18,561 nt of DNA, from the IMG/VR virus record IMGVR_UViG_2671180846_000018; one strand, 5' to 3'. Position numbers: made by a program. This document shows, one piece after another, positions 15,001-18,000 of the stretch. Position 1 is the first letter of the stretch. Each line of letters begins with the position of its first letter. This stretch comes from a virus. Lineage: Duplodnaviria > Heunggongvirae > Uroviricota > Caudoviricetes.

Positions 15001-18000
15001 AGTTGATTATTGAAAATCAAAAGTCATTTAAACAATAATGATACCCAGCAAGAGATTTCTTATTTTAACTCATAGATCAGACAGTCAACGATTTCTAAAC
15101 CATTTACCATAGAATTAGAAACGCGAACTTTACCATCGTTGACTCTAGCAAATCCTTTTAACATTTTATAAACAAAAGCTGAATCCCCCTTAGCCTCAAT
15201 TGCTTCTAATGGTATCGGCTTATACTTTTTTGATATGCTATTTCTATTTATCTCACTGATTTTTCTATATATTTCTGCCGGCCCACGTTCTGAGAAGTCA
15301 CTGATAACTAAAATATATCTCCAAGATAGATCTGGGTAATAAAACCACATTGCAGCATCAATAGTTAAATTCTGTAACTTGAGTTTTTTTAACAAAAATT
15401 GACCTGAGAATTCCATATCTTTTGTCAACTCTCTGCCGATTACCAGTGTGCTTTTACCCATTTCAAAACTCCAGAATTTTGGTCACCTACAGCATCAAAC
15501 AATTGTTCGGCCATAGCTTTACTTATGTTATTGTCGTATCTAAATTGCTCGCTCCAGTCTTTAACGACCGACCAGTTAATCTCCAACGAAACATCATTTT
15601 TTGCGTCAGCAATCAAAATTTGATGTAAGTTGGCAATTTTGAGAAGTTGCGACAAATCATGAGTATATGAATCATTTACGACTTTTTTGTTTGGAAACTC
15701 ATGTTGTAAAAATGACTTGGCAATACAGGCCTTCAATGCACATTCAACTGCATACCCACAAAGATAATATGCACCATGAAAAAAGCCATGATCAAGCAAG
15801 CATTTGGCCTCATTAAGCCTAGTGTCAGATAATGCTTCAAGGTCGTTTTTATTCATACAATTATAACTTGAATTATCCTAATTTTTATGATTATACCCTT
15901 ATCAGGTATGATGTAGGAACTGAAAACAATATTGGATATCATTTTCGGTATTTCTCTGCAAATTCCAGCCCACAGGATCTCGGTGTACAATCTGTCGCTG
16001 ATCGCGCAAATTTAGGGTCAATCACTTCATTTTTTGCATCAAACCCTCACTAACATCGAACGATTATAGTACAAGTAGTGTTCTTGACTTCTCATTAAAC
16101 CGTCAGCATTCAATTAATTACAAAATACTAGCGGCATTTCTCTCCCGCAACTTTATTACAGCCGTTCAGAACGTAAATGCGTCAATACTCGACTCCACTT
16201 ATCATCCTGCCACGGCCGGAATTTTACATGTGCCGTTTCTCTGGCAAGGATTGCCTGTGCCTTATTGAGTATCCGGGGATATTCTTGTTCGATTGAAGTG
16301 AAGCGACCGGCTTCGCGGTGTTCTGCTACCTGAAGAAGCGGAGTGACGTTTTGGCAAGCGGTTAACATTGTGTCACTTGCCCGCCATAACCAAGCAAGTG
16401 TGCAAAGTTCGTTATCAGTGAATTGTTTTGTGATTGGGGATTGTTGAATTTCTCGATCGAGAATATCCAGCACCCAGCGGCGGAATTCTTTGGCCACAGG
16501 AGTGCGGGCGAACATGGCGATCAGATGGGCGCCACGGAGGGAGAAAATGCGAGTCTTCTTACGATAATTTCCTGAGGTCGTTGATTCGACGACCTGAGAC
16601 ATTCCGTCAGTAAACTCATCAATATTTTTGTTGTAGATGTCGGTTACTGCTTTGGTGCTGGCATATTTTAATGCTGCCGCCAATTCTTTGCTGGTAAACC
16701 AGATCTGGTTGTTGTGATTTATAGGAGTGAATTTTACATCGCGGAATGCGAGCTGAGTGACCATAGCGATAATCTCGTTTTGAATTTGAGCTATCACCAC
16801 CGACGACGCCAATCGACTGGTGGTGGACTGTGCAAGGTTGGCGTAACCGGTCAAAACGAAATCCGGCGCTTCCGAAGAAGCCCTCACACAGCCCACCATA
16901 ATTTTTGTGTAGACGTGCACTGCGCATAAAAAAACCGCGAACGCGGTTATGCGTCGTTTTGATGTCCGGGACGCCAATCCCGTGTGCCGATTTTGCGGCA
17001 ACGCACAGAATATAGCGCCGGATAAATAATGTCGTCAACCCTTGCATATGGGGGGCGCGATGATCACTACTACCACCATAATCGCTCCAACTGTTGCAAC
17101 TACTTTAGGCTAAGACATCACGATTTCCATATCACCTTTAGCCGCCAGACAAACAGAGACTCCCTGTTCTTGGCTGCCAAAAACACCGAATGCAAAAAAT
17201 CGCAGGTGTATTTCTGCATCTGTGGAGGGAGAAGAGAGTTTGGATTGTATGTGCGCATAAACGTCCCCGTTTAGCGCAGAAGTCACCGTAGTTGTTCATA
17301 TTCTGATGACATGATAATTTCCTATTGAATAGAAAAAATTAACACGACTCATTCTTATGACTGGAAAAAGCAATCATGCTAATAATCATTGTTGTTCCAG
17401 TTCCAAATGCAGCGAAATAATCACCAATATTTTTTCTACCGGTTTCGACTTTGATGCTATATTCTGCTAACACCTAACTAACACTACGTTTCACACAGCA
17501 ATTACATGGAAATAACATGACTATCAAAGCGACTGACATAGAGATTCTTCATCGTTATGCTGAAGGGGTAATGGAACGTTCTAACCATCATGCAAAAAAT
17601 GTTGGTGCAGCCGCTCTTACATTGCTAGGAGGTGTTATCTGGAAAGCCCTGCCCGGATCAATCGAGATAAGAACGTATAACGGAAGTCTTGCAAATATGG
17701 TGTGGTGGCAAAGCGAAAGAACATTAAAAAATTATGCAATCTCATACAACCATAATTCATGTGAAATTGAAATGAGAGATGAATCAGTCAAAGGTGCTGT
17801 ATTATTTAGCATTTCCAACGAAACCACTCCAGAAAAAATATTATCACAGCTTTCTGAGCTTTAATTAAAGGCGGTGCTAACACCGCCCATACCATTACTC
17901 CACATCTTACGCAACTTGATAATTATGCTCTATTAAATACCCACAATATTTCATCAATGCATGGGTCAGCTACAAAATGTTTACCGTGGTAATTCCTGTT

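Follow-up and report, generated by a model that had tools for sequence, protein, structure and literature searches.

Control of a gene through a short open reading frame (ORF) in its leader is a known arrangement, in which expression of the next gene may be coupled to translation by unmasking of a sequestered ribosome site or may depend on attenuators of the pyrBI type or of the Rho-dependent type, e.g., mgtL and tnaC. In phage lambda, tR2, a plain GC-rich hairpin with a T run, lies between ren and ninB and thus immediately precedes the Orf/NinB gene where the nin region begins. The record of phage 82 (X92588) marks putative −35 and −10 sequences, orf33, and an inverted repeat given as a "possible regulator-binding site," and that of phi80 annotates a hairpin as IR4. 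Here, we describe an element that occurs twice in IMG/VR virus record IMGVR_UViG_2671180846_000018, a stretch of 18,561 nucleotides (nt) assigned to the Caudoviricetes, which was analyzed over its whole length and is referred to below as the window. The element is a leader of Escherichia, Klebsiella, and Enterobacter lambdoid phages, in which it immediately precedes the gene that opens the nin operon, a member of the Orf/NinB family (ybcN/orf151 or ninB). Both copies in the window are likely to be instances of this one conserved cis-regulatory leader of ~190 base pairs (bp), on the minus strand, and not a simple duplication.

The two copies had been marked in a first-pass annotation as a direct repeat at 14874-14965 (copy 1) and 17196-17287 (copy 2), diverged by about 5%. 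The pair is real, with 87 of 92 positions identical (94.6%) in an ungapped alignment at an offset of 2322, and the divergence holds over these coordinates. In BLAST, the match grows to 123 nt, of which 87.8% are identical (E = 9e-41), and alignment with the flanks showed that the repeat is not of low complexity and that weaker homology continues past both ends, to ~14857/17179 and ~15020/17342. A repeat scan found this pair (162 nt at 81%) to be the sole long repeat in the window, all other families being of 30 nt or less. The annotation had also described a perfect 10-bp stem-loop at 14960-14988 as an extra flank of copy 1 that copy 2 lacks. The stem-loop exists (GTCACCGGAG, a 9-nt loop, and CTCCGGTGAC), but it is hairpin H1 of the repeated unit: its arm at 14960-14969 falls within the repeat, and copy 2 has a degraded counterpart at 17282-17310. 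Nor is the repeat the anonymous plus-strand DNA as which it had been presented, since on the minus strand it reads as a regulatory leader that is structured and in part coding.

The unit runs from a sigma-70 promoter through hairpins H1 and H2 and a small ORF of 31 to 33 codons, which contains hairpin H3, to hairpin H4 and a stop/start overlap with the next gene. In copy 1, the leader is complete, with all parts present. Its promoter, predicted by the promoter scan, spans 14992-15020 (minus strand, as are all parts of both copies given below) and consists of a −35 hexamer TTGATT (15020-15015), a 17-nt spacer, and a −10 hexamer CATAAT (14997-14992); the −35 and part of the spacer lie within a palindrome, TTGATTTTCAATAATCAA (15020-15003). 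H1 (14960-14988) begins 3 nt past the −10, with the loop UUUGAACUC closing its perfect stem, and is followed by H2 (14930-14956), which has 11 bp, one bulge, and the loop GGGA, a Shine-Dalgarno sequence. The ATG of the small ORF (14936-14934) sits in the 3′ arm of H2. This ORF, of the orf33/ylcH family, occupies 14835-14936 (33 codons) and holds, in turn, an unpaired H2-H3 spacer that is C rich and G poor (14901-14929), H3 itself (CAGAUGCA-GAAA-UGCACCUG, 14900-14881, with a conserved A.C mismatch), and the U-rich tract CGAUUUUCUUUAU (14880-14868, so that H3 with its tract covers 14868-14900). H4 (14844-14857, ACCUC-UGCG-GAGGU) is predicted by folding to sequester the Shine-Dalgarno sequence of ybcN, whose GTG start overlaps the TGA stop of the small ORF (GTGA). 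The gene headed by copy 1, ybcN/orf151 (14383-14838, minus strand), belongs to the Orf/NinB superfamily (NCBIfam PRK09741, 4e-83; a weak Pfam NinB match; RefSeq ybcN). The minimum-free-energy fold of copy 1 yields H1 to H4, with a z value of −4.4.

The four hairpins are maintained by compensatory changes. A covariance model, R1, was built from 13 sequences of the phage 82 type and aligned 98 elements from 91 sources; copy 1 scored 191.7 bits (E = 4e-45) and copy 2 132.4 bits (E = 6e-31), each over model positions 1-155, with no further significant match in the window. In the R1 alignment, 94.8% of cells were paired, compared to 74.3% in shuffles and 21 to 45% when the partners were slid; 27 of the 33 pairs had changes on both sides, and the covariation score (0.497 versus 0.154) was equalled by none of 500 shuffles. 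RNAalifold alone recovers H1 to H4, with compensatory changes in 20 of the 25 pairs that it predicts. Taken by hairpin, H1, for which the family criterion was a stem of 5 to 11 bp with a YYUGRRCAM loop, has 55 distinct stem variants among 97 sequences around that loop consensus. H2 has 11 distinct stems, both-side changes in 10 of 11 pairs, and the loop GGGA in 94 of the 97 sequences. Three pairs of H3 covary between the E. coli and Klebsiella types, and H4 has both-side changes in all five of its pairs, with 96.6% of cells paired. Over the 97 sequences, C makes up 36.5% and G 6.4% of the H2-H3 spacer, against 27% and 24% of the entire element.

An alternative helix, AUGCAGAAA/UUUYUGCAU, rivals H3 in some folds; it lacks compensatory changes, its pairing fails in the Klebsiella type, and it is therefore not supported as a conserved switch. 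RNAalifold also proposed a long-range pairing between CGC of the outer H2 stem (~14954-14952) and GCG just after H3 (~14881-14879), in alignment columns 67-69 and 167-169, which are so nearly invariant that they speak neither for it nor against it. When the window was searched for pairing targets of the H1 loop, the loop motif matched with one mismatch at five places, both strands counted, against 4.25 expected by chance. As for a lambda-type nut site, in which a boxA consensus precedes a short hairpin with a GNRA-like pentaloop recognized by the N protein of the phage itself, no boxA-like sequence was seen by eye, with no formal search made, and the H1 loop is of 9 nt; the presence of the unit in phages with different antitermination systems (HK639 and phi80) argues against N-specific recognition.

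The small ORF is mostly of 31 to 33 codons in 188 elements, despite at least six unrelated N-terminal versions, and overlaps the start of the next gene in 184 of them. This preserved frame could also be read as protein coding alone, in which case the repeat would encode the N-terminal two thirds of a functional 33-residue YlcH/Orf33 protein and copy 2 would be its truncated paralogue; annotation of the ORF in K-12 (ylcH), phage 82 (orf33), Klebsiella phage Chronis (gp59), and RefSeq, as well as a 12-residue core motif that recurs in the peptides, would be in keeping with it. We consider such an explanation very unlikely. The 106 distinct peptides, mostly of 31 to 33 residues, match no Pfam, NCBIfam, or PHROG family and bear only the names hypothetical or YlcH in databases. 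Their variable sites are even across codon positions (11:12:11, 8:8:8, and 8:6:9), with nonsynonymous changes exceeding synonymous ones. The peptide core coincides with H3 and becomes SPMAKATGDFLH via substitutions that preserve base pairs, and the best-conserved part of the repeat, ~55 nt made up of the 3′ arm of H1, the linker, and most of H2, precedes the start codon. Since the frame and the overlap are kept and the codon positions are equally variable, it is the translation of this frame that is conserved, not the peptide.

To this structure corresponds a wide distribution. An exact-pattern scan found at least 120 IMG/VR contigs that carry the unit, and a second scan with a Klebsiella-type pattern found 71 more; with the covariance model, the unit is recognized in more than 180 viral contigs. 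Matches were obtained in 48 GenBank phages, including 82, phi80, HK639, HK225, Enterobacter phage CobraSix, and many Klebsiella phages, and megablast located the copy 1 unit (201 nt) in 3013 of 5426 complete E. coli genomes, in up to four places per genome. The taxonomic range rests on these phage, IMG/VR, and E. coli collections because a scan of genome contigs with a 16-mer having two degenerate positions gave chance matches only (L128-L247). A YbcN protein search of viral contigs returned relatives at 96 to 99% identity only and added no diversity. The genes downstream from the leader fall into just two families, YbcN-like/PRK09741 (103) and NinB/Orf-like (69), both of which lie within the Orf superfamily (PMC4118853). 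The leader is absent upstream of the ybcN/ninB homologues of lambda, a P22-like Salmonella phage, and Edwardsiella, Proteus, and Aeromonas phages, so the unit is no universal companion of Orf-family genes.

The closest described relatives, phage 82 and the ylcH-ybcN segment of the K-12 prophage DLP12, carry the same element (199.9 and 190 bits with R1) at 91 to 92% identity to the window copies, although each has a single copy and no cassette where the window has two. The inverted repeat marked in the phage 82 record is H1, and IR4 of phi80 is the equivalent of H2. We found no annotation, in records or in the literature, of the four-hairpin covarying structure, the Shine-Dalgarno sequence in the H2 loop, the anti-Shine-Dalgarno hairpin H4, the unselected peptide, or the wide distribution. 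At gathering scores, Rfam 15 yielded only isrK and C4 in the window and left the leader unmatched, and a search of 14780-15080 at E values up to 10 gave chance matches only, of 19 bits or less. The unit is a new representative of the known class of small-ORF-controlled leaders, widespread and essentially uncharacterized.

With respect to the promoter, the family criterion was a 16- to 18-nt spacer and an end 3 to 7 nt before H1, and the geometry TTGnnn, 16 to 18 nt, nAnnnT was found in 140 of 152 unique upstream regions. Klebsiella promoters have TTGCTT or TTGCAA, 17 nt, and GATAAT or CATAAT, and their spacer carries another palindrome, which is GC rich. When up to one mismatch is allowed, the palindrome TTGAT-N8-ATCAA occurs in 87 of the 152 upstream regions versus 13 of 3040 shuffles; it may be an operator for a protein or a further hairpin. 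The form of the palindrome differs by host group: this one belongs to E. coli, and Klebsiella has CCCG-N3-CGGG or GGG-N6-CCC (~1385-1400 in L126). Known prophage small RNAs (AgvB/AsxR and the Pas RNAs) map elsewhere, near Q and the lysis genes. In one RIL-seq supplement, ylcH was absent from the portion available.

Term-seq data for K-12 place RNA 3′ ends at 572349 and 572350, 5 to 6 nt past H1, in two growth conditions (Adams et al. 2021, PMC7815308). These ends fit either a terminator close to the promoter or a 5′ hairpin stable enough to persist after decay. They would be expected if the unit were mainly an equivalent of lambda tR2, in which H1 and/or H3 with its U tract stop transcripts lacking N modification, and the promoter hexamers and the small ORF are incidental; the position shared with tR2, the flagging of H3 and its tract as terminator-like in both copies, and the poor expression of rusA downstream point the same way. 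This appears unlikely to us. By the criterion for an intrinsic terminator (a GC-rich stem with an immediate U run), H1 has a strong stem but was not called by the terminator scan, its tail being UUCUGCGC, with no U tract, and for H3 with its tract the scan gave no more than an alternative stem of 5 bp, followed by an imperfect tract. Promoters keep their geometry even where the hexamers differ, and H2, H4, and the stop/start overlap, which would have no role in a plain terminator, covary or are conserved nonetheless. Unlike the unit, tR2 lacks a promoter, a small ORF, H2, and H4, and an R1 search of lambda gave no match. Moreover, at many loci a canonical terminator is already present just upstream of the unit.

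The regulatory mechanism that we infer for the leader has several parts. H2 would probably restrict initiation at the small ORF. Translation of this ORF would, with comparable probability, melt H4 and let the ribosomes reinitiate at the start codon that overlaps its stop; the Orf-family gene would then be expressed only by translational coupling. A further step, possible but more doubtful, is that these ribosomes shield the C-rich spacer and H3 with its U tract, in which case premature termination, either Rho dependent or intrinsic, would be suppressed and the leader would serve as a translation-gated entry to the nin-Q operon. The likeness to known leader-ORF control lies in a short ORF whose translation, and not its peptide, would matter; in a start codon buried in a hairpin; in the way the ORF runs through the hairpin that holds the next ribosome site, with the stop and start overlapping; and in the C-rich, G-poor tract and the hairpin with a U tract inside the ORF. 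In contrast to those systems, no ligand, stalling motif, or sensing codons are evident, and we claim no specific attenuator family.

Copy 2 appears partly decayed in the window. Its promoter region (17314-17342) is only 46 to 66% identical to that of copy 1, having lost the palindrome and the −35 and having TATCAT in place of CATAAT, and the promoter scan called none on the minus strand at copy 2. The degraded H1 (GUCAUCAGAA...CUACGGUGAC, 17282-17310, with the loop UAUGAACAA) has 3 of its 10 pairs broken in the model alignment and 6 left in the minimum-free-energy fold. H2 (17252-17278) has the same sequence as in copy 1, with its ATG at 17258-17256, and H3 with the U-rich tract CGAUUUUUUGCAU (17190-17222; H3 at 17222-17203) has one pair broken by a G-to-A change. 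Past ...GCAUUCGGUGUUUU, the sequence of the adjoining cassette takes over and replaces H4. The result is a chimeric small ORF of 46 codons (17118-17258), orf33-like over its first ~24 codons and cassette in the remainder, which RefSeq lists as a truncated pseudogene. It terminates 11 nt within the cassette's first gene, a small hydrophobic ORF (17035-17130, minus strand; MEIVMS*PKVVATVGAIMVVVVIIAPPICKG) that is disrupted by a TAG at codon 7 (17112-17110). As the chimeric ORF runs into this hydrophobic ORF, copy 2 is best described as a paralogous leader, with the hydrophobic ORF as the gene it heads.

The two leader copies bracket a 2.3-kilobase (kb) cassette, which with the single-copy "empty" sites of phage 82 and K-12 gives the classic picture of direct repeats around an insertion. 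Together with the lack in copy 2 of a promoter, of H1 stability, and of H4, this picture could suggest that the copies arose in place by a recent tandem duplication, or as a neutral scar, at cassette insertion and have no regulatory role. The relationships between the copies make this quite improbable. Over the first 118 nt, copies 1 and 2 are 88% identical to each other, while each is 92% identical to phage 82, and copies 2 and 1 are, respectively, 92% and 91% identical to K-12 DLP12; the unit is, in addition, under structural selection across more than 90 diverged sequences and tied to Orf-family genes. The leader-cassette junction recurs in several other phages with different upstream flanks (L004, L113, and L065 and, in a second subtype, L002 and L028). 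Both observations agree with the suggestion of the first-pass annotation that the duplication is not recent or that the copies were acquired separately. The junction is present in 299 of the 5426 E. coli genomes, and in five of the six two-copy loci, those just listed, it is followed by isrK and C4. The sixth (L087, 6849-11107) has a 4.1-kb colicin-like cassette with a different breakpoint. The L087 insert encodes a 380-residue protein, a 620-residue colicin-like protein, and a small downstream ORF; its upstream copy is followed by a truncated ybcN fragment, and its downstream copy lies directly before a Q-like antiterminator gene.

Since the copies are not each other's closest relatives and the junction is shared with other phages, they were probably joined by recombination. 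In this scenario, the isrK-C4-antirepressor cassette would bring its own version of the leader, fused to its first small gene, and would have come to lie upstream of the ybcN leader when phages having the unit in common recombined. We favor such an exchange, with copy 2 and the hydrophobic gene now decaying in the window, as the probable origin of the pair. Homology-driven exchange over short, diverged sequences between lambdoid phages and defective prophages has been demonstrated, with the DLP12 nin region as one of the tested substrates (PMC3945230). As with the mosaic joints of De Paepe et al. 2014 (PMC3945230), short conserved sequences of otherwise different phages would serve here as crossover points, and the leader copies bracket different cassettes in different phages. 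Unlike in those joints, the shared sequence is itself a regulatory unit, the tandem pair is one outcome, and the event is deduced from sequence. As a repeat, the pair is what phage mosaicism ordinarily produces.

The bracketing repeats might instead be att-like, integron-like, or miniature inverted-repeat transposable element/insertion sequence (MITE/IS)-like ends, moved by site-specific recombination or transposition. The adjoining plus-strand ORF 17517-17864 matches the integron cassette protein family VCH_CASS14, and the site is a known cargo hotspot, where PD-lambda-1 is found in PhiR26_1. Such an origin is extremely improbable in our view, given that no integrase, transposase, terminal inverted repeat, or short target duplication was found in or beside the cassette and that the repeat is a structured leader of more than 100 nt and not a short core. 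The breakpoints also vary, falling inside the small ORF in isrK cassettes and inside ybcN in L087, and the 3′ halves of the cassettes differ.

Several points weigh against two conserved regulatory leaders, one of them decaying. Covariation was counted on a model-fitted alignment; the loci were collected with patterns inside H3 and the U tract, so that conservation there is biased; and the covariation of H3 is essentially one E. coli-to-Klebsiella event. In K-12, no start site near 572316 appears in the available portions of the Adams 2021, Cappable-seq, and SMRT-Cappable-seq supplements. The Term-seq read counts are low (~1,600 to 1,900 [PMC7815308]), the 3′ end could come from ybcM transcripts, and, as noted above, H1 has no U tract and that of H3 is imperfect. 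In DLP12, rusA, which lies downstream, is adequately expressed only with promoter-creating insertions (PMC4118853), so the leader promoter would be weak, repressed, or attenuated in K-12. Finally, the window-type allele of the copy 2 region, with the TAG in the hydrophobic ORF, is found at ≥99% identity in 174 E. coli genomes and may thus not be a case of simple decay, and in L113 the upstream copy retains both its promoter and H1 undamaged, which shows that such copies need not be vestigial.

The remainder of the cassette (15060-17038, minus strand) was assigned by Rfam, the promoter scan, Pfam, PHROGs, and RefSeq. A strong isrK promoter (TTGACG-18-TATATT, 17038-17009) precedes isrK (17000-16928; 64.1 bits) and the C4 antisense RNA (16903-16816; 82.5 bits), both above the Rfam gathering score and in tandem, 24 nt apart. 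They are followed by a Bro-N/P22AR_C antirepressor (16764-16156; Pfam), a 138-residue HEPN protein (15856-15440; phrog_5737), and a 133-residue ORF (15461-15060; phrog_5760) that overlaps the HEPN gene; these last two could be a toxin-antitoxin or defense pair carried as cassette cargo. With isrK and C4 and an antirepressor gene after them, the cassette resembles P1 immI (c4-icd-ant) and the Salmonella Gifsy-1 isrK locus (PMC4825925). In contrast to these, the window has isrK and C4 in tandem, a leader copy and the hydrophobic ORF before them, and the HEPN gene and an uncharacterized gene after, and the array looks like a hybrid of the P1 immI and Gifsy-1 isrK arrangements. The hydrophobic ORF adjoins the isrK promoter on its upstream side, with its stop codon within the isrK −35 hexamer. 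Its family, of 29 to 31 codons (MEIVMSWPKVVATVGAIMVVVVIIAPPICKG), matches the C-terminal half of phrog_4612; the ORF is intact in L004 and L113, and a second subtype occurs in L002 and L028. It might encode a small membrane or toxin-like peptide linked to isrK.

The window as a whole is a lambdoid prophage, the queried segments of which are 100% identical to E. coli E2865 (NZ_AP018808, ~618-628 kb) and other strains. Rightward (pR) transcription corresponds to its minus strand. Along that strand, replication gene P is followed by the plus-strand ORF 17517-17864, copy 2, the disrupted hydrophobic ORF, the isrK promoter, isrK, C4, the Bro-N/P22AR_C antirepressor, the HEPN protein, the 133-residue ORF, and copy 1, and then by ybcN, ninE, ybcO, rusA, ylcG, quuD, a plus-strand ompC-like porin gene, the lysis genes, and the terminase. 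The VCH_CASS14 match of ORF 17517-17864 (115 residues) has an E value of 5.7e-20; this ORF occupies the place of ren, or of defense cargo such as PD-lambda-1 in PhiR26_1, in other phages, and the region of its promoter overlaps that of copy 2, which is eroded. The ompC/nmpC-like porin gene (11694-12776, plus strand) has the Q-type antiterminator on one side and the lysis genes on the other, as it does in DLP12. Five runs of N, of 50 to 75 bases, interrupt the window (292-347, 9057-9131, 9363-9412, 10590-10643, and 18273-18322), one of them inside replication gene P.

A broader reading that would join all these elements is tentative and, as a whole, rather unlikely. The unit would be an undescribed phage riboregulator that gates entry to the nin-Q operon independently of N and influences late-gene timing. 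It would release a promoter-proximal RNA of ~34 nt ending past H1; the H1 loop (YYUGRRCAM) and the promoter palindrome would bind conserved factors; and the whole would act as a portable "cassette head" that admits cargo, such as the isrK-C4-ant or colicin-like modules, without silencing the genes downstream. The RNA structure, in any case, has strong support, but the unit is missing from Rfam and has been characterized experimentally no further than by the sequence annotation of 1996. The unit stands at the gateway to recombination genes (orf/ybcN and rusA) and to the late-gene activator Q, and marks a site of repeated insertion of accessory and defense cargo. If the leader does control the nin-Q region, it would account for the silent rusA of DLP12 and would be relevant to prophage induction and the timing of lysis, including in Shiga-toxin-producing strains.

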